From Candidatus Harrisonbacteria bacterium (GTDB taxonomy: Bacteria; Patescibacteriota; Minisyncoccia; UBA6257; 02-FULL-45-10c), in assembly GCA_016214655.1 (NCBI GenBank), contig JACROC010000005.1, forward strand, positions 67,078 through 131,077: a stretch of 64,000 nt of DNA, in the 5' to 3' direction. The notes under the pieces are model-generated. The model saw only the letters and a program-made list of their open reading frames with translations. It did no database searches and was not told the origin of the DNA. A program made the translations under genes and the position numbers. Positions 5,234 to 60,609 of this stretch are shown here, piece by piece (position 1 is the stretch's first letter; the number at the start of each line of letters is the position of its first letter).

Positions 5234-5507
5234 AAAATAAGTTGGATGTCAATTTACTGAGCTTAGTACTGAAAAGAGCTAACTTCTCTCCCCTCTTCCA
5301 TCGTTTTATTTCACTCTCTCTTCTGCGGGCTTCTTTTAGTGTCGCAAATGATTCTGAATATTTCAGTTTTACCGGCCGGCGGATTTTTGTGTAATGAGCT
5401 CCTGATTTTGAAGTATTATGCTGCTTTAAGCGCTTTTCTAAGTCTTTAGTGCAACCTACATACAAAGATTTGTCGGCGCATTCTAGTATGTAGGTGAAGT
5501 AAGGCAT
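5220..5507 (-). CDS. GIY-YIG nuclease family protein (UPF0213)
   Basis: YFTYILECADKSLYVGCT...LEKRLKQHN is a canonical GIY-YIG N-terminus. Overlaps the exonuclease gene start, so they form an operon. Confidence 0.75.
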   Translation of the reverse strand: MPYFTYILECADKSLYVGCTKDLEKRLKQHNTSKSGAHYTKIRRPVKLKYSESFATLKEARRRESEIKRWKRGEKLALFSTKLSKLTSNLFFDTL

Positions 5508-38514: not shown

Positions 38515-39174
38515 TTAATTAAGAAAGCTCGGCTTTTTAATGACCTGAACTACCTTCCCGTTGATCATAAAATTATCATTCGGGTGGATATAGATCGGCG
38601 GAAAATCTTTGGTAGATTCAGACATCAGCACCACCTGGTTATTATTTTTATCCAGATAAAATTTCTTGATGTTCGCCATGCCATCAATAATGGAAAGCAC
38701 AATGTCTCCGGTTTTGACGTTCTTATCGTCTACATTCACAACCACATAATCCCCGTCTTCAATATTTTTCCCGCCGATTTTCGCCCGGTTCATACTGGGA
38801 CCGACTACTTTCAGGGCAAAAAGACGGCTCTCCTTAGCTTTTGCCGGCGCAAGCAATGAACTGGAAATCCTTAAAAATCCTTCAATATTAGTTTCGGCAA
38901 AAATCGTCGCTGGTCCGGCATTTACCGATCCTAAAATAGGAATAGTAAGGAGCTTGCCGTTGCCGGACATAGTTTCCCATTCCTGCCTGATTTTCTTGAT
39001 CATTCCCTTAGCTTTATTAATTTTAATAAGCCCCTTAGCTTGGAGCTGTAAAAGATGATGTTTAACTTTCTGCGGAGAATCCACTCCGATAAACGACCCT
39101 ATTTCTCTCAAGGTATGCTGGCCCAAGTTTTTCTCCTGGGCGACTTTTAATAATTGTTCTTGTATTTTATGCAT
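38515..39174 (-). CDS. lexA: LexA repressor (HTH plus S24 peptidase)
   Basis: N-terminal winged HTH. Cleavage-site-like NAGP. Catalytic Ser in VVGPSM and Lys in a KVVQVIKK-type C-terminus. Confidence 0.75.
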   Translation of the reverse strand: MHKIQEQLLKVAQEKNLGQHTLREIGSFIGVDSPQKVKHHLLQLQAKGLIKINKAKGMIKKIRQEWETMSGNGKLLTIPILGSVNAGPATIFAETNIEGFLRISSSLLAPAKAKESRLFALKVVGPSMNRAKIGGKNIEDGDYVVVNVDDKNVKTGDIVLSIIDGMANIKKFYLDKNNNQVVLMSESTKDFPPIYIHPNDNFMINGKVVQVIKKPSFLN

Positions 39175-39182
39175 ACCCGGTG

Positions 39183-39446
39183 CTACAACTTCGATTGGTA
39201 ATAGATTTTAAGCCGTTTAGCTAAAAACCTGCGACCTCTCGTAGTTTTTAAATATTCTTCGCGCCTTTCCGCGTCTTGTTGATTGACGCAAGCTTCAAAA
39301 TAAATAAGTTTCATAGGTAATCGTGGTTTAGTAGAAAATGATTTACCTTGATTATGTTCTTCTATCCTGCGCTTCAAATTATTGGTGTAACCGACATACC
39401 TTTGCTTATCATATAAACTTTCTAATACGCAAACGTAGAAGAACAT
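39183..39446 (-). CDS. GIY-YIG nuclease family protein (UPF0213)
   Basis: MFFYVCVLESLYDKQRYVGYTNNLKRRIEEHN. Start moved to the internal Met matching the family N-terminus. Lies immediately upstream of lexA, probably as an operon. Confidence 0.7.
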   Translation of the reverse strand: MFFYVCVLESLYDKQRYVGYTNNLKRRIEEHNQGKSFSTKPRLPMKLIYFEACVNQQDAERREEYLKTTRGRRFLAKRLKIYYQSKL

Positions 39447-39604
39447 AATCGAAGTTGTAGCACCGGGCATATTCTTATTATAGCATATTAGTTATGTAAA
39501 AGTACAACCCAGTTGACAGAGTTGACAAGATTTTAAAGAATATAAGGGTGTTGTTGGGATAAAAACTTATAAAACTCCCGCGGAAGGGAAATTTATTATT
39601 CTAA

Positions 39605-40003
39605 TTAAAAATTTAAAAAGAAGATTGCTAACTGCAGTACCGTTGCAAATGCGCCCCAGAAAAGATACGGCAAAAGCAAAACAAAAATCAATTTTGAATA
39701 TTGCCAAATTCTGTATTCAAAAAATGCCAAAGTCCCTAAAATTATTAAAATATCGATTGATGCCGGCCAAAGCGGCCTTAACCCTAGCTGAATTGGGGTG
39801 AATAAAAGATTGGCAGCCAGATTAGCAAGAAAAATCCACAGTAAATTTTTCGGCGCTTCTTTCCTATAAACTAAATAAATCAAATATATTCCCGCGGCCG
39901 CGATCAGCGGATAGATAATCCCCCACGCCAGCCCAAACACCCGTTCCGGCGGAGAAAAAAATGGCTTTTGAATATTCTGATAGAATTCTTGATAAGTTCT
40001 CAC
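39605..40003 (-). CDS. TspO/MBR family (tryptophan-rich sensory protein-like) membrane protein
   Basis: Five TM helices with conserved Trp/Pro positions (GLAWGIIYPLIA, LFTPIQLGLRPLWPA). Confidence 0.65.
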   Translation of the reverse strand: MRTYQEFYQNIQKPFFSPPERVFGLAWGIIYPLIAAAGIYLIYLVYRKEAPKNLLWIFLANLAANLLFTPIQLGLRPLWPASIDILIILGTLAFFEYRIWQYSKLIFVLLLPYLFWGAFATVLQLAIFFLNF

Positions 40004-40080
40004 ATTTTTATTCTACCATACTAAATTCCCGCGGAAGGCAAATTTAGAAACAAAAAACCGCCTAGTTAATCAGGCGGTTA

Positions 40081-40836
40081 TTATTTTTTAGACAAACTCC
40101 AGACAAGAGCAGTGGCATTATCTTCCAAGCCCCGATCCTCTGCCCACTTCATAACATCTTGAGCTGTTGAGCGCCGCATCGCGCATTCTTTGATTTCTTC
40201 AAGAAGCTTGCCGGTGTTGTGATGTCCCGGATCAAAAACTCCATCCGATGCGACCAACACCCACTCTGGATTATGAATCGTATAAATGTCCGGTTCACGC
40301 GAAAGGACTTTGCCGAGATAAGAATCGCCTAAAGCCCGGCTCATTTGCAAACCACGGACTAAAGCACTTAAGTCGGTCCAGATATATCCATCCGCATATA
40401 TTCCGCCGCGCTGTTCCGCCGCTTTCCGCTCTTTAAGATTGGAACGGACATTATGTTCCGGGCTTACATTAAGATTCCCCTCTTGATCCAATACCACTAC
40501 CGGAGAATCACCGAGAACCGCAACCGAAACCCCGGGAATACCATCCAACAGCAGCGCGGCTGAAAAAGTTGAACCCTCACTATAAGCTTCGGTTTGGCTG
40601 TTCAAATCGGCAACCAAGCAGCGCAGGGATTCTTCTGCCTGGCTTTCATCTGTGATCTGAAATAAATCTTTGATTTTTTCCGCGCAAAGTTCCGCAACCG
40701 CTTTCCCGACATGGCCATCCATCACCGCAAGCAGCCAACCTTTTAAATCAGGCTTATCAATCCGCAAGCGGACATATCTGTCTTCCTGATGACTCCTTGG
40801 GCCTTGCCTGATCTCAACACTAACAATGCCTTTCAT
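40081..40836 (-). CDS. PP2C-family serine/threonine phosphatase
   Basis: RSHQEDRY, AVMDGHVG and VASDGVFD metal-binding motifs. Confidence 0.75.
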   Translation of the reverse strand: MKGIVSVEIRQGPRSHQEDRYVRLRIDKPDLKGWLLAVMDGHVGKAVAELCAEKIKDLFQITDESQAEESLRCLVADLNSQTEAYSEGSTFSAALLLDGIPGVSVAVLGDSPVVVLDQEGNLNVSPEHNVRSNLKERKAAEQRGGIYADGYIWTDLSALVRGLQMSRALGDSYLGKVLSREPDIYTIHNPEWVLVASDGVFDPGHHNTGKLLEEIKECAMRRSTAQDVMKWAEDRGLEDNATALVWSLSKK

Positions 40837-40980
40837 TATTCACCCCTCAATAATGCTGATAACAAAATAACTTATCGCGAATCACTCCGTCAATACTCAA
40901 AACTCCTCTGAAAATCAAATTTTATTTTTTTATTATTGCGCCACGACACCGCGGTGTAGTGACGGGCATGTGATATAATG

Positions 40981-41181
40981 CTAAACCAATCTATACTTTT
41001 CATTTCTATAAACTACCCTAACTTTTCTCGTATCTATCTCAATCCATTTTTGGTCCAGCTTATTTTTATAATCCTCTTTCTTTATATAACAATGACCCCA
41101 AATTTTAACTTGGTTTTTCTTATTTTTATCGAAATAAATTTCGGCTAATTTGTTATTTACAATCGCGAAACTCCAGGACAT
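40981..41181 (-). CDS. small protein downstream of XRE regulator (possible toxin partner)
   Basis: 66 aa, basic. Preceded by a repeated operator/promoter cassette identical to the one upstream of 42078..42929. Confidence 0.4.
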   Translation of the reverse strand: MSWSFAIVNNKLAEIYFDKNKKNQVKIWGHCYIKKEDYKNKLDQKWIEIDTRKVRVVYRNEKYRLV

Positions 41182-41263
41182 ATGTTTATTTTATCACAAA
41201 ACAGAGCCACGAGGCGCTGTTTTGATTTTTTACCTCCCGCGGAAGAGAAATTTTATATAAATT

Positions 41264-41566
41264 CTAAACTAAAGAAATTTTCAATTTCCCCTTGAGTGAA
41301 TTAGCGATTTTATTTAGTTTATCCGCTGTAACGTTCTGCTCTCCGCTTTCAATTCTAGCAATCTCGCTCTGAGTGGTTTGCATTTTTTTAGCTAATTCTT
41401 TTTGAGTTAAACCCCTTTTCTTTCTTGCGGAATAAATTTCGTAGCCAAGCGCAAGTCTGTGAAACCTCTCATCGGCTTTCGCCCGAGCTTTTTTAGTTGG
41501 ATATTGCTCTTTTAAAATATCTTCAAAAGAGCGGAATTTAATTTTTGTATTTTGGTTTTTTGTCAT
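41264..41566 (-). CDS. XRE-family helix-turn-helix transcriptional regulator
   Basis: RKKRGLTQKELAKKMQTTQSEIARIESGEQNVTADKLNKIANSL is a canonical Cro/C1-type HTH. Confidence 0.75.
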   Translation of the reverse strand: MTKNQNTKIKFRSFEDILKEQYPTKKARAKADERFHRLALGYEIYSARKKRGLTQKELAKKMQTTQSEIARIESGEQNVTADKLNKIANSLKGKLKISLV

Positions 41567-41680
41567 TATTTTATTTAAATAAAAATAGCATATATGCTAT
41601 ATTTGTCAATGGTGGTTTGTGAATAACTACCCCACTACACCGCGGTGTAGTGACGTGGTAAGTAAAATTAAAGTAAAAAT

Positions 41681-42073
41681 TTATAATTTTACTTCTTTGA
41701 TTTCAATCTGCGATCTACCTTTTCCTTCCTCTTTTGGCTTTTGAAAATTTATAAGTAAACCAATTTTTATTTTGAGAATTCTCATATAATTTTTGATTTG
41801 TTGCTCCTCAGACGCCCCAAGCTCACTACCAACCGCTTTCAACTCCAGAACTACCCTATCCTTCCCGAAACTTACAATTATATCCGGATATCCTTCGCCG
41901 ACATAATGATCTTTGTATTTAAGCTCAACTACTTTTTGATTTTCATATCTGATTTTCGCCAACCTTAAACCAACCTGCATGGCTTTATCATATACATCTT
42001 CCGAAAAACCGGAGCCTAAGGAGCGGTAAACATCCCTGGCGATTTTTTTGATTTTATTCAATTTGTTTTGCAT
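41681..42073 (-). CDS. GxxExxY protein (PD-(D/E)XK nuclease-like)
   Basis: GEGYPDIIV...LELKAV matches the GxxExxY signature. Start taken at MQNKLNKI, 4 nt after the upstream stop. Confidence 0.65.
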   Translation of the reverse strand: MQNKLNKIKKIARDVYRSLGSGFSEDVYDKAMQVGLRLAKIRYENQKVVELKYKDHYVGEGYPDIIVSFGKDRVVLELKAVGSELGASEEQQIKNYMRILKIKIGLLINFQKPKEEGKGRSQIEIKEVKL

Positions 42074-42077
42074 AAGT

Positions 42078-42929
42078 TTATTTTCTCTTATTTTCATCTA
42101 AAGTCTTCCCATTTTTATCTTCCCACTGAGTCCATCCATTTACAGATCTTCCCATGATAACATCTCCAGCAGCGCTCGGACTTCTAAAAATGTGGTCCTT
42201 TGTAAAAATAAAAGATTTGTCATTTTCTTTTTTTAAAACACCGTCATTCTGAAGTTTTTGACGAAGATTTCGGCTGCTCATAGGAAGTCCTCTCCTCTCA
42301 GCTATGCGAACCAATGAACCTTTATAAACCACAAATTCTCCATTCTCAAGTAATAAGCCAGAGCCCCTTGCATCTTTATTTTTTTTATCCTCACAAAAAT
42401 ATTTTTCTTCTGTATCTTTTTTAAGATCGTGAATATCTTGAAATAAAGTAAATCCTAAAAAATTTAAAATAAATTGAATTTTACTAAAAAGTTCATCATT
42501 AACAATCCTTTTGTGTTCTGAAAGCCTGGCTTCTTCTGGTTCTGGTTTTGTTTTATTTTCAATATCATAACGATCTACATGCTTTGCTAATTTTATAGAC
42601 TTACTTTCAAGATATTTTATATCGGCGCTATCTAAATTTTTATTAGTAATTATAACCCCAGTCTCCCAAAATTCTTTTTCTGCGTCATGATTACTAAGTC
42701 TTTGATAAAATTTTTCTGATTGTCCAATATAAACAATCTGTCTTGAAGGATCTTCTCCGGCGCCAAAAAGGAAATAAACTCCTGCCTGATTAACTTCTGA
42801 TCGCTTTCCAAGATCTTTTAATTTATTCCGCGGAACCACAAATACCTCACTATTAAAATTAGCGAGATCAATTATTTTAATTCCGTTTGGATTATCATCA
42901 GGAAGTAATATTGTTATAACTTGCGCCAT
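42078..42929 (-). CDS. GIY-YIG nuclease domain protein with C-terminal DUF4357-like domain
   Basis: N-terminal GVYFLFGAGEDPSRQIVYIGQSE...RLSNHD GIY-YIG core. C-terminal region resembles the DUF4357 domain found on such nucleases. Confidence 0.6.
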   Translation of the reverse strand: MAQVITILLPDDNPNGIKIIDLANFNSEVFVVPRNKLKDLGKRSEVNQAGVYFLFGAGEDPSRQIVYIGQSEKFYQRLSNHDAEKEFWETGVIITNKNLDSADIKYLESKSIKLAKHVDRYDIENKTKPEPEEARLSEHKRIVNDELFSKIQFILNFLGFTLFQDIHDLKKDTEEKYFCEDKKNKDARGSGLLLENGEFVVYKGSLVRIAERRGLPMSSRNLRQKLQNDGVLKKENDKSFIFTKDHIFRSPSAAGDVIMGRSVNGWTQWEDKNGKTLDENKRK

Positions 42930-43318
42930 ATATTTATTTTATCACAAAACAGCGCCACAAGGCGCTGTTTTAATTTTTTGACTCCCGCGGAAGGGAATTT
43001 TTATTTAACTTCTTAATAAACAACCTGCTTAAGCAGACACCCTCGCAAAAAGAAATAAAGTAATTACTTACCTTTAATCTAATGATCCCAAACCCTTATC
43101 GCTATAAGAAAAACCTTAACCGAGAAGAATGCCACAAGATGCATCGCGTAAAACCATATTTCATCAAACATCTGTATTCCCCATATCTTATATGAAATCC
43201 AGAATACCAAAGAATGAAAAACTAAATAAGTTAAACTCCCAATGAATCGATTAGAGTTTGGAGATAAACCATTTGAAGATCTATAATGATGCTGGAATTT
43301 TATCATTTACATACTATC

Positions 43319-43678
43319 TTATTTAATTAAACTGGCTTCAAGTAATTTACCCGTAACAGAATTTATTCTTTCGTAAATCACAAAAACTTTACTTTTAGCC
43401 ATTCCAATATTTTCTATCTTTTTATCAAAATGAACGATATCGTTTCTGTATTCTTGTATGAAATTTCGCAAATAAGTAATATCAATTTTTATACTCTCCC
43501 CTAGTTTCTTTTCAAAAATTGGTGCTAAAAAATTTCCATTGCCACAAGCAGGCTCAAGAAAGCGAGATTCGATTCTCTCTGTCTCATTTTTAACCAAATC
43601 TAACATTGCATCCACCTCTCGTTCCCGGGTGAATACTTCGCCATGATCCTTAACTCTTTGTTTAGACTTTATTTGCAT
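43319..43678 (-). pseudogene. N-terminal fragment of an N6-adenine DNA methyltransferase (Eco57I-like), truncated
   Basis: VFTREREVDAMLDLV...LEPACGNGNFL holds motif X and motif I only. No NPPY motif IV. Followed by an unrelated small ORF, so the gene is decayed. Confidence 0.5.
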
Positions 43679-43924
43679 AATATTTTATTTAAAAAATCTC
43701 GCTGTCGGCACGCCGAGGGCTTTAGTGATTCTTTTGACGGTATAAAAAGTCGAGTTCGGTGTTGCCCTAGCTTCAATTTTAGCGTCAATAAATACATCTT
43801 AAAGTGCTTATAAAATTTTTGTTCCTTGGGTATAATTTATACATAAATTATACATCAAATTAATTCTTAATAAGAATCAACAAAAGTTAATAACAGGGTT
43901 CACCTAGCTAGGCGAATCTTGAAA

Positions 43925-44104
43925 AAACTAAACCTATCTGTCGTACGGCAACTACGGAAGCGCCAAAAGCTAGGAACCGCAGCCCCGACGATATGTCGGG
44001 GCTTTTTGCGATAGCAAAACCAGGTTTTTGGCGCTGAGACGTAGGAGCCGTCCCGCGCTGGACGGGACGGACTCCGGTGCCGGTAGACAAATAGGTTTAG
44101 TTTT
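43925..44104 (+). ncRNA. GC-rich structured RNA, paralog A of an unassigned family
   Basis: 5' AACTAAACCTATCTG pairs with 3' CAAATAGGTTTAGTT. Conserved cores GTCGTACGGCAACTACGGA and CCGGTGCCGGTAG are shared with paralog B. Internal hairpins GCGCCAAAAG..TTTTGGCGC and CCGTCCC..GGACGGG. The track ORF 43908..44090 is spurious. Confidence 0.45.
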
Positions 44105-44162
44105 AAAGAGGTTTAAAAATCAAAAAGAGGCCTTATGGCCTCAAATTATCTTAGCTCGGCTA

Positions 44163-44459
44163 TTAAGCCGTCTTAAATTCAGGATATAACTGCACATCAT
44201 TTTCTAGATTCCGGATTCTCTTTATTAAACTCTTGTGCACGTATATTTCTGGAGTTCTAGGCGCGGGAGACTTAAATAAAAATATATCATTGCTTATGCT
44301 GCAGTTAATCCAGACTTCAAAATCTGGGCGGAGCACAATCAGATTATTTTTTAAATCCCAGCTATCCAGGTCCCCAAGGTCAAATACCGCTCCCCCGGGA
44401 GATACGCCGTGCGGAGTCATGTGCAACTGCTCGGTAAATACAACCTCCAACATGTCCAA
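44163..44459 (-). CDS. hypothetical protein
   Basis: 98 aa, downstream of fic. A hairpin plus T-run terminator follows on the minus strand (44115-44140). Confidence 0.4.
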   Translation of the reverse strand: MDMLEVVFTEQLHMTPHGVSPGGAVFDLGDLDSWDLKNNLIVLRPDFEVWINCSISNDIFLFKSPAPRTPEIYVHKSLIKRIRNLENDVQLYPEFKTA

Positions 44460-44538: not shown

Positions 44539-45420
44539 CTAAATACCGATTTTCCAAATATTCTTTTCTAAAAAAGCCTCAATGGTCTGCCGACTGGCCT
44601 TATTGATAAGATTTGAATGAGAGAGTTTATTATTCTTCGCGTATTCGGTTAAGGTAATAATTTTTTTACCCTCTAAATATGCCAACCGTTTATAATAACT
44701 ATTCGTAAGCGCCCTGCCTACTATCTCCTCCATAATGGCAGTTTTGCCTTTTTCATCAAATTCTTTAAACGCTTCGTAATATTTAACCCTATCAATAAAT
44801 TTTATATTTATCGGAACAAAACCTTCCCGGATCAATAAATAGTTATTTATAACTCTTCCAATGCGGCCATTGCCATCAATAAACGGATGGGTATGCTCAA
44901 ATGTAAGATGCAATAACGCAATGCGTTTTATAATATTTTCATGGCTGCTTGCGTTATATTCTGCAAGCATTTTTTCTAATCGTTCTATTATTTCTTTTGG
45001 CGCCGGAGCGATGTGGCTACCGACACGAACACGCTCGTCACCTTTTCTAAATCTTCCGGCTATATCGTCACGGATGTTAGAAATAAGCATTTTGTGAAGT
45101 GACAACATGACGTCCAACGTCAATTCTTGTTCTTTAGCTCTTTTATCTATGTACGACACCACTCGCGCAAGATTTTTTGCTTCAAAAATCTCGCGTTCAC
45201 TGATAAATCGGTCCAAGTCAATCTGGAGAAGTATCTTTTCCGTCTCCTCAAGCGTGAGAGTACTATTCTCAATGGCGTTTGAGTTATATACCTGTTCAGC
45301 GACCTCAGCCTCAGAGACAAGTTTAATAAGCGCATTTTTACCAACAGATGCTTTGTAGTATCTCTCGCGAAGAGAATGTATCTTATTAAATACGCCAGAT
45401 ATTTTTGTCATATATAACAA
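44539..45420 (-). CDS. fic: Fic/DOC family protein (AMPylase-type motif)
   Basis: HPFIDGNGRIGR matches the HPFx(D/E)GNGRxxR Fic motif. Confidence 0.8.
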   Translation of the reverse strand: MLYMTKISGVFNKIHSLRERYYKASVGKNALIKLVSEAEVAEQVYNSNAIENSTLTLEETEKILLQIDLDRFISEREIFEAKNLARVVSYIDKRAKEQELTLDVMLSLHKMLISNIRDDIAGRFRKGDERVRVGSHIAPAPKEIIERLEKMLAEYNASSHENIIKRIALLHLTFEHTHPFIDGNGRIGRVINNYLLIREGFVPINIKFIDRVKYYEAFKEFDEKGKTAIMEEIVGRALTNSYYKRLAYLEGKKIITLTEYAKNNKLSHSNLINKASRQTIEAFLEKNIWKIGI

Positions 45421-60423: not shown

Positions 60424-60447
60424 TAAATAACTGCTGGGTTCCATTGA

Positions 60448-60590
60448 GAGATCTGCCTGTCTGTCGTGCGGCAATTACGGAGCCCTGAAATGCTTGGATT
60501 TTTGCGAAGCAAAAAATTTCAGGGCGAGGCATAGGCGGCACCGACCGCAGGAGTCGGTGAACGCCGGTGCCGGTAGGCAGATAGGCTGAG
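60448..60590 (+). ncRNA. GC-rich structured RNA, paralog B, immediately 5' of tgt
   Basis: CCTGTCTGTCGTGCGGCAATTACGGAGCC ... CCGGTGCCGGTAGGCAGATAGG. Closing helix CCTGTCTG/CAGATAGG. Internal hairpins GCCCTGAAAT..ATTTCAGGGC and CACCGAC..GTCGGTG. Confidence 0.45.
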
Positions 60591-60609
60591 CTCTTATAGA
60601 ATAGCTAAA

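Follow-up and report, generated by a model that had tools for sequence, protein, structure and literature searches.

We analysed a stretch of 64,000 nt (hereafter the window) from a metagenome-assembled genome (MAG) of Candidatus Harrisonbacteria, and in particular its minus-strand genes at positions 39183-43678. A small patch of defence-type genes at 40,900-43,900, lying between host genes and carrying no mobility genes of its own, has probably been acquired horizontally, part of it being dead and part of it apparently alive. The dead part is an open reading frame (ORF) in which a deletion fused the start of a DNA methyltransferase gene to the end of a HEPN gene, while the part that appears alive is a two-gene operon encoding a GIY-YIG nuclease of the PDC-S14 family and a GxxExxY protein. 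An initial annotation of the same genes had proposed a degraded restriction-modification (R-M) or defence island. All the minus-strand ORFs that it listed were recovered at the same positions, and every one of its domain calls held in Pfam, NCBIfam and PADLOC, the profile libraries searched here together with PHROGs for some proteins and Rfam for RNA. A decayed patch is present as proposed, but its extent is smaller and leaves out the small GIY-YIG, TspO and PP2C genes. The features of the patch are the following:

40925-40964, minus strand: hairpin H2b (GTCACTACACCGCGGTGTCGTG), just after orf66
40981-41181, minus strand: orf66, a conserved small protein (178 cluster representatives at E<=1e-3)
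41179-41268, minus strand: cassette R1b, a 90-nt repeat 88% identical to R1a
41264-41566, minus strand: XRE-family helix-turn-helix (HTH) protein of 100 aa (HTH_3 4e-14, HTH_37 3e-7)
41582-41609, minus strand: sigma-70-type promoter of the XRE gene, TTGACA-16-TATTTT
41616-41655, minus strand: hairpin H2a (GTCACTACACCGCGGTGTAGTG), after the GxxExxY gene
41681-42097, minus strand: GxxExxY/PDDEXK_3 protein of the PD-(D/E)XK type (PF13366 5e-29; TIGR04256 92.6 bits, cut-off 35)
42078-42929, minus strand: PDC-S14-type protein with GIY-YIG, beta and DUF4357/RAMA-like domains (PADLOC 2.6e-86; NCBI MBI4991997.1)
42927-43016, minus strand: cassette R1a, a putative terminator plus promoter predicted to drive the PDC-S14 gene
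43319-43678, minus strand: chimeric ORF of 119 aa (PADLOC MTase_II 2.6e-10; motif I LEPACGNGNFL)
43514-43678, minus strand: 5' part of the chimera, methyltransferase codons 1-55 (71.6% nucleotide identity to locus L093)
43319-43513, minus strand: 3' part of the chimera, last 64 HEPN codons including RNDIVH (87.5% amino acid identity to locus L091)

A methyltransferase start fused to a HEPN tail

When the 119-aa ORF was used as a query, two unrelated sets of proteins were retrieved. Residues 1-58 align to the N-termini of proteins carrying motif I (P0141 and P0187, 209 aa; P0155, 174 aa), and residues 56-119 are 83-88% identical to the C-termini of 172-178-aa proteins (P0121, P0123, P0126, P0132 and P0209). 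The full-length HEPN homologues score 26.6-26.8 bits against PF18869 (HEPN_RnaseLS), just under its 29-bit cut-off, and their Rx4H motif is kept in the chimera as RNDIVH. At the DNA level, in alignments with L093 and L103, the methyltransferase-type homology spans 43,675 to about 43,505, and the HEPN-type homology spans 43,513 to 43,293, with 84.7% nucleotide identity to L091 and an extension of 27 nt beyond the stop codon. The two homologies overlap at a 9-nt A/G-rich microhomology, GAAAAGAAA (43505-43513). Since they abut and share this short stretch, a single illegitimate deletion, and not frameshift decay, accounts for the fusion. The ORF is an in-frame deletion fusion of the start of a split Eco57I-type methyltransferase and a HEPN (RNase-LS-like) tail; both genes were destroyed by the deletion, and the site once held an R-M-like module and a HEPN gene.

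The initial annotation had read this ORF as an N-terminal methyltransferase fragment with motif I only and had suggested a check for frameshift remnants in 43079-43900. Motif I is there, and the pattern [NDS]PP[YFWH] (NPPY-type, motif IV) does not occur in any frame of 42,930-43,920, but about half of the ORF is HEPN tail. Neither frameshifted remnants of the methyltransferase downstream of the chimera nor further remnants in other frames were found, the decay having taken the form of the deletion fusion itself. The putative orf75 (43079-43306) and the 43,017-43,318 stretch matched nothing in any library searched, Pfam and PHROGs included, and orf75 has no support as a gene.

Intact relatives of both halves could be located. 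In loci L103-L105 an operon encodes, in order, a 194-aa protein, a 209-aa protein with motif I, a 502-aa Eco57I-family methyltransferase and an 839-aa protein with T5orf172 and ResIII domains. In L103 (5001-9652) the 502-aa methyltransferase gene starts 1 nt after the 209-aa motif-I-only gene, and the same holds for L104 and L105. The 209-aa length recurs across many independent clusters, so the methyltransferase is apparently truly split in two genes. In L088-L091 a DNA methyltransferase gene is found one gene upstream of the HEPN gene. It encodes an 841-aa N6_Mtase plus Methylase_S protein in L088-L090, where the HEPN gene is followed by AbiU2; L091 has a Dam-type enzyme, then a HARE-HTH gene and, farther along, AbiEii. 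At our site, 56 methyltransferase codons are left where a type II R-M system would have an adjacent active methyltransferase with motifs I and IV, and the C-terminal 64 residues are left of a complete HEPN domain with its Rx4-6H motif.

Composition and limits of the patch

The compositionally foreign block is AT-rich and about 3 kb long. Its GC content is 0.33 (at 41-44 kb), compared with 0.41 for the whole window and 0.44-0.48 in the adjoining host genes. The GC content at third codon positions (GC3) is 0.20 in the PDC-S14 gene, 0.22 in the HEPN part of the chimera and 0.33-0.34 in the XRE, GxxExxY and orf66 genes; in the flanking genes for RarA, LexA, TspO, PP2C, Tag, M50 and Trx it is 0.40-0.56. 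It is this atypical GC and GC3, together with the lack of Shine-Dalgarno (SD)-type starts in the patch genes, that places the limits of the foreign block at about 40,900 and 43,900. The Fic gene, with a GC content of 0.37, is possibly part of the variable region.

The patch is bordered by the PP2C gene on one side and by a structured-RNA gene, orf98 and the Fic and Tag genes on the other. The PP2C gene looks like a host-type gene, the right-hand neighbour of the patch, because its GC content is host-like, its start carries an SD-type GAGGGG and its orthologues on three metagenome contigs (L094-L096; 74-78% identity) have no island gene beside them. The small GIY-YIG, TspO and PP2C proteins gave no defence-family match above noise in PADLOC or any other library searched, and their genes are not part of the acquired block. 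Among the features expected of a genomic island, atypical composition was found; no recombinase or integrase domain was detected in the scanned genes on either side of the patch, no flanking direct repeat was found around it, and the sole tRNA gene in the window, at 6.2 kb, is not near it.

The PDC-S14/GxxExxY operon

Residues 2-281 of the PDC-S14-type protein, which is 100% identical to MBI4991997.1 ('GIY-YIG nuclease family protein'), align to positions 16-295 of the 301 in PADLOC model PDLC04925 (PDC-S14), and four more PDC-S14 models match. DUF4357 scores 82 bits over residues 223-277 (cut-off 38.4), and the Pfam GIY-YIG match is sub-threshold at 18.1 bits (22.6). Among 61 homologues the catalytic GIY-YIG set Y52, Y67, G69, R77 and E108 is invariant and N125 is at least 90% conserved, and all six residues are present here. 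The AF2 model has a pLDDT of 94.2 for the whole protein and of 93.9 for the C-terminal 114 residues. GIY-YIG proteins head its structural matches, with weak E-values: the top one in BFVD has prob 1.00 and an rmsd of 3.5 over 102 columns at E 7e-3, and a Foldseek search of the PDB with the whole model gave no match at E<=0.001. Sequence searches of the PDB likewise returned nothing for this protein, and chance-level matches only for the GxxExxY protein.

The first 20 nt of the GxxExxY gene overlap the end of the upstream PDC-S14 gene; with the second ATG as its start, it would begin 5 nt past that gene's stop codon. The motifs GFSEDVY, PD and ELK can be read in its product, which belongs to TIGR04256 and PF13366. 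The ORFs of the PDC-S14, GxxExxY, XRE and orf66 genes are full length when compared with their homologues, and both nucleases keep their catalytic residues. Judged from its sequence, the two-gene operon is intact.

We then considered the surroundings of three PDC-S14 homologues. One lies with DUF559 and Mu-Gam genes between murein and GlmU genes, one among TIR, PDDEXK_1, HEPN_AbiU2 and conjugation genes, and the third directly after a type I HsdR gene; a DNA methyltransferase is absent from two of the three in the stretch read. A GxxExxY gene accompanies none of these relatives, and in two of the three another gene of the PD-(D/E)XK fold (DUF559, PDDEXK_1) is found one or two genes downstream. 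Relatives are encoded in 3 of 50,697 phage records, at 26-30% identity, and viral contigs scanned for relatives of PDC-S14, for the R1 hairpin and for the GIY-YIG inverted repeat described below gave no match.

The C-terminal domain has been treated in published work. Fusions of DUF4357 to GmrSD type IV enzymes, to GIY-YIG proteins and to T5orf172 proteins have been described (PMC4619093), and the domain has been used as an 'alias' of McrB homologues (PMC11090510). The RAMA domain, which overlaps DUF4357, is predicted to discriminate N6-methyladenine and is fused to URI/GIY-YIG, T5orf172 and other restriction nucleases, including those of R-M systems that modify N6A (PMC4738411). These last fusions would fit an alternative, implied in the initial annotation, in which the PDC-S14-type protein is the endonuclease of a type II-like R-M system whose adjacent methyltransferase was destroyed, the genome now being protected by an unlinked methyltransferase. 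The nuclease gene and the methyltransferase remnant do share a strand, with the nuclease gene about 400 bp downstream, and the homologue next to HsdR points the same way. However, the intact operon of the dead methyltransferase pairs it with the T5orf172-ResIII helicase gene and not with a DUF4357 protein, which argues against an obligate partnership with PDC-S14. Furthermore, the varied neighbours of the relatives, two of three without a methyltransferase, indicate that the PDC-S14 gene is not necessarily the restriction counterpart of the dead enzyme; PADLOC models the family as a single-gene candidate, and both the terminator-promoter cassette and a different GC3 set the gene apart from the remnant. 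We therefore consider the R-M endonuclease unlikely.

Duplicated terminator-promoter cassettes

Repeated promoter/operator cassettes had been noticed in the initial annotation and are readily confirmed. A 90-nt direct repeat, R1, ends on the start codons of the PDC-S14 gene (R1a) and of orf66 (R1b). It consists of a small CCGCGG hairpin, an A-tract, a strong hairpin, a T-tract (terminator), TGATAAAAT, 6 nt and an ATG, with fold energies of -26.4 kcal/mol for R1a (z = -5.1) and -20.1 kcal/mol for R1b. The TGAT-N3-AAT plus 6 nt plus ATG layout is also present upstream of the PDC-S14 homologues in L081 and L086, and the geometry of extended -10, 6 nt and start codon recurs at TspO, the small GIY-YIG and other genes of the window. 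The most plausible reading of R1 is a compact unit of terminator and leaderless promoter, copied locally.

Extended -10 elements (TGnTAnnnT) stand 5-8 nt before starts that have no SD sequence at 42929, 41181, 40003, 39470, 46125, 19291 and other positions, and at about 4980-5003 in L081 and L086. The PP2C gene and orf98, in contrast, have SD-like sequences. The pattern suggests that leaderless mRNAs may be common in this lineage.

Two smaller elements accompany R1. The CCGCGG-centred hairpin H2 (CACTACACCGCGGTGTAGTG) follows orf66 and the GxxExxY gene (two matches against zero expected), and a 20-nt motif, AAATTTCCCTTCCGCGGGAG, forms a small hairpin with CCGCGG in loop and stem. The motif has four copies, all intergenic and on the minus strand (39575-39594, 40026-40045, 41234-41253 and 42982-43001), and is confined to 3.4 kb of the window (39,575-43,001) that also hold 8 of its 27 CCGCGG sites. 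R1, H2 and the 20-nt motif were not found in the 1.46 Mb of fetched loci. This absence, and the lack of an integrase, led us to reject integron-like or other site-specific cassettes.

The cassettes bear on the possibility that the whole patch, the PDC-S14/GxxExxY operon included, is non-functional debris heading for deletion. The patch holds one clear deletion scar, orf75 and the 43,017-43,318 stretch match nothing, mobility genes were not found, and the PDC-S14 protein is a single-member cluster in a collection of 15 billion proteins. Against this, the four ORFs named above are full length, the catalytic residues of both nucleases are present, and the promoter and terminator signals are intact and even duplicated, which makes debris throughout decidedly improbable.

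The XRE regulator and orf66

The XRE protein has a 40-aa N-terminal extension and matches controller-protein (Control_protein) and capH-type models in PADLOC. A perfect 16-bp palindrome, ATAGCATATATGCTAT (41585-41600), overlaps both the spacer and the -10 element of its promoter and, with 0 mismatches allowed, occurs nowhere else in the window. A promoter of its own with a palindrome over the -10 is a layout typical of autoregulated repressors, and the palindrome is a probable autoregulatory operator; the XRE protein is probably a left-over controller or regulator. The palindrome was also considered as an operator within the cassettes and rejected, as it does not occur there.

Homologues of orf66 are numerous (69 of the 178 cluster representatives at E<=1e-10), with no match in Pfam, NCBIfam, PHROGs or PADLOC. 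Three homologue contexts were read: in one the gene stands between a PIF1 helicase gene and a Phd/ParE pair, in another it precedes an SNase gene, and in the third it follows the gene for a zinc-ribbon protein. None of these contexts has an HTH family match among the neighbours. The initial annotation had treated XRE and orf66 as a toxin-antitoxin-like pair, and indeed the two adjoin on the same strand, 82 nt apart, XRE has matches to the NCBIfam antitoxin models Y4mF/HipB, MqsA and HigA, and one orf66 homologue sits beside Phd/ParE. A type II toxin-antitoxin pair is nevertheless highly improbable: rather than a co-transcribed pair of conserved adjacency, we find the 82 nt occupied by cassette R1b with its strong hairpin, T-tract and own -10 element, no HTH neighbour in any of the three homologue contexts, no toxin-family match for orf66, and antitoxin matches for XRE that all fall far below the curated cut-offs.

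Genes and RNA flanking the patch

The following features lie outside the foreign block:

38515-39174, minus strand: lexA, a context gene outside the island (Peptidase_S24 1.3e-20, LexA_DNA_bind 9e-6)
39183-39470, minus strand: ORF of a small YhbQ-type GIY-YIG protein (PF01541 8e-14)
39605-40003, minus strand: TspO/MBR membrane protein (PF03073 5e-25; GC 0.39), with the 20-nt hairpin motif on both flanks
40081-40836, minus strand: PP2C phosphatase (PF00481 3e-14; GC 0.48)
43920-44108, plus strand: ncRNA A (z = -10.6), outside 39183-43678, at the left edge of the low-GC block
44163-44459, minus strand: orf98, with promoter, SD-like sequence and terminator
44539-45420, minus strand: Fic-domain protein (PF02661 4e-22; GC 0.37)

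As the initial annotation had it, the small GIY-YIG gene is directly next to lexA, its stop codon lying 8 nt before the lexA ATG. A 24-nt, 96% inverted repeat around it resolves to perfect 21-nt arms (39,447-39,467 and 39,176-39,196; two exact copies against zero expected), each abutted by TATG on its outer side. The sequence tied to this bounded element, which spans 39176-39467, is CCCGGTGCTACAACTTCGATT. When 39,176-39,467 and one copy of TATG are removed in silico, the remaining sequence reads TGCTATAAT-AAGAAT-ATGCATAAA and gives lexA a leaderless start of the usual geometry; the predicted empty-site reading of the lexA locus is TATAATAAGAATATGCATAAA. It is conceivable, if on balance doubtful, that we see here a mobile mini-element of 292 bp, made up of the small GIY-YIG gene between its terminal inverted repeats of 21 nt and flanked by a 4-bp target duplication (TATG), which inserted exactly at the leaderless lexA start codon and took over the host promoter, lexA being translated behind it. 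No second copy of the element turned up, and a paralogue at 5,304-5,507 lacks a repeat of this kind. In an alternative reading the arms would be the 5'-3' closing helix of an mRNA that hides both start codons; the predicted transcript fold (z = -9.6) has this closing helix, and a second helix of 20 nt covers the internal ATG. Upstream of the GIY-YIG/lexA promoter, at 39500-39530, a tandem TGTCAAC-TC-TGTCAAC is followed by GGGTTGTAC; the tandem is a possible operator and might be this lineage's LexA box.

At the opposite edge, the structured RNA noted in the initial annotation was confirmed. ncRNA A folds into a strongly structured three-way junction and has relatives in the window at 60,443-60,598 (plus strand) and in a different Patescibacteria MAG (L039, 1091-1237, minus strand, 118 bits). 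Members of this family are 147-189 nt long and share the junction sequences CGUAYGGCAAUUxCGGAG ... GGUGCCxGUAG. Compensatory changes affect 26 of the 44 pairs when all three members are compared, and 99.2% of cells are paired, compared with 35-46% with slid partners; no Rfam family matches. The neighbours differ from copy to copy (the island edge, PMT/tgt, and FtsZ/RNR), so ncRNA A behaves as a free-standing small RNA. A MITE was rejected on the ground that the copies differ by compensatory changes instead of being near-identical, as was a leader or riboswitch, the downstream genes being different (tgt, none, convergent ftsZ). The sole viral match to the motif is a chance one inside a GC-rich coding region. 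Nothing ties the function of ncRNA A to the island.

Next to this RNA, orf98 has no homologue in any library searched. The Fic protein carries both the active site HPFIDGNGRIGR and a SNAIEN inhibitory-helix motif in one chain, and matches 'mobile mystery protein B' below the cut-off; its gene has a 12/12 consensus promoter at 45447-45420, placed for a leaderless start at 45411.

A model of the patch and its significance

Altogether, the data are best accounted for by the acquired patch that is part dead and part alive. One illegitimate deletion at the 9-nt microhomology fused methyltransferase codon 56 to the last 64 HEPN codons. The remaining operon would be transcribed as a leaderless mRNA from the extended -10 promoter 6 nt before the ATG, ending at the CCGCGG-centred hairpin. 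By analogy with the published domain architectures and predictions, the DUF4357/RAMA-like domain may sense the adenine-modification state of DNA and guide the GIY-YIG domain to cut foreign DNA; much like a type IV enzyme or a defence nuclease acting alone, the protein would not need a methyltransferase next to it. The XRE repressor would be a left-over controller, and orf66 would be expressed from the duplicate terminator-promoter cassette.

Several observations weigh against this model. The RarA search of 185,579 species genomes returned 80 loci, the best of them from Patescibacteria and at most 79% identical, and none syntenic. The three contigs with PP2C orthologues have GreA upstream and DUF167/DnaJ downstream and differ on the non-island side too; as TspO is also missing from them, synteny is simply unconserved at this distance. 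The 20-nt hairpin motif flanks TspO and precedes the small GIY-YIG gene, which links the host part to the patch. As to the nuclease, RAMA (PF18755) scores 19 bits on the PDC-S14-type protein, below its threshold of 35.2, Foldseek gave no PDB match at E<=0.001 for the C-terminal 114 residues (the DUF4357 region), and the homologue contexts number three. PDC-S14 is a computational defence candidate for which the literature yielded genome-survey mentions and no experiment, and the putative role of its DUF4357/RAMA-like domain as a modification reader draws on domain architecture and published prediction.

The patch is an ordinary kind of bacterial defence island, and the PDC-S14 family is uncharacterised, though already catalogued; the operon adds a Harrisonbacteria example of this GIY-YIG-DUF4357 family. 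The destroyed methyltransferase here, and the lack of one near two of three relatives, favour the idea of a stand-alone nuclease that reads modification, and no long-standing question is opened by it. For the Patescibacteria, or CPR, the locus would illustrate that defence genes are still kept and turned over in minimal genomes, and expressed from compact and duplicable terminator-plus-leaderless-promoter cassettes. It also holds a lesson for annotation, in that a 119-aa methyltransferase-like ORF can be the fusion scar of two unrelated defence genes, which pipelines would misname. Two side observations hold more promise as leads, namely the GIY-YIG gene bounded by inverted repeats at the start of lexA and the RNA family that shows covariation and has no Rfam match. 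The former, if truly mobile, would be a bacterial GIY-YIG-encoding element bounded by inverted repeats and targeting leaderless start codons, of which we found no report in the literature.

Comparison with known systems

The closest known relatives of the live part are the PDC-S14 or URI(GIY-YIG)-RAMA/DUF4357 fusion nucleases (Iyer, Zhang & Aravind 2016, PMC4738411), with which our protein shares a full-length HMM match, the domain order, the catalytic residues and relatives in defence-island-like surroundings. It differs in the overlapping GxxExxY gene that follows and in the Pfam RAMA score below cut-off. With the DUF4357 type IV enzymes (GmrSD fusions; McrB-like) it has in common the C-terminal DUF4357 module and the absence of a conserved methyltransferase partner in the contexts read. 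In contrast to these enzymes, the nuclease here is GIY-YIG and not DUF262/DUF1524 or McrC, there is no NTPase, and modification dependence is only putative.

The first 56 codons of the chimera, motif I included, are 65% identical to the 209-aa gene of the split Eco57I-type methyltransferase and T5orf172-ResIII operon, while the 502-aa catalytic part, the T5orf172-helicase gene and the 194-aa upstream gene of that operon are all absent here. Its last 64 codons, with RNDIVH, resemble HEPN proteins of the RnlA/LsoA type (RNase LS-like, PF18869) through their identity to the 172-178-aa homologues; about 108 N-terminal residues are missing and no RnlB-like partner was identified. Finally, the XRE protein resembles R-M controller (C) proteins and XRE antitoxins in being a small HTH_3 protein with a palindrome in its own promoter and PADLOC 'Control_protein' matches. 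Unlike them, it has the 40-aa N-terminal extension, and its gene lies downstream of the nucleases and not upstream, with no partner toxin or intact R-M system.

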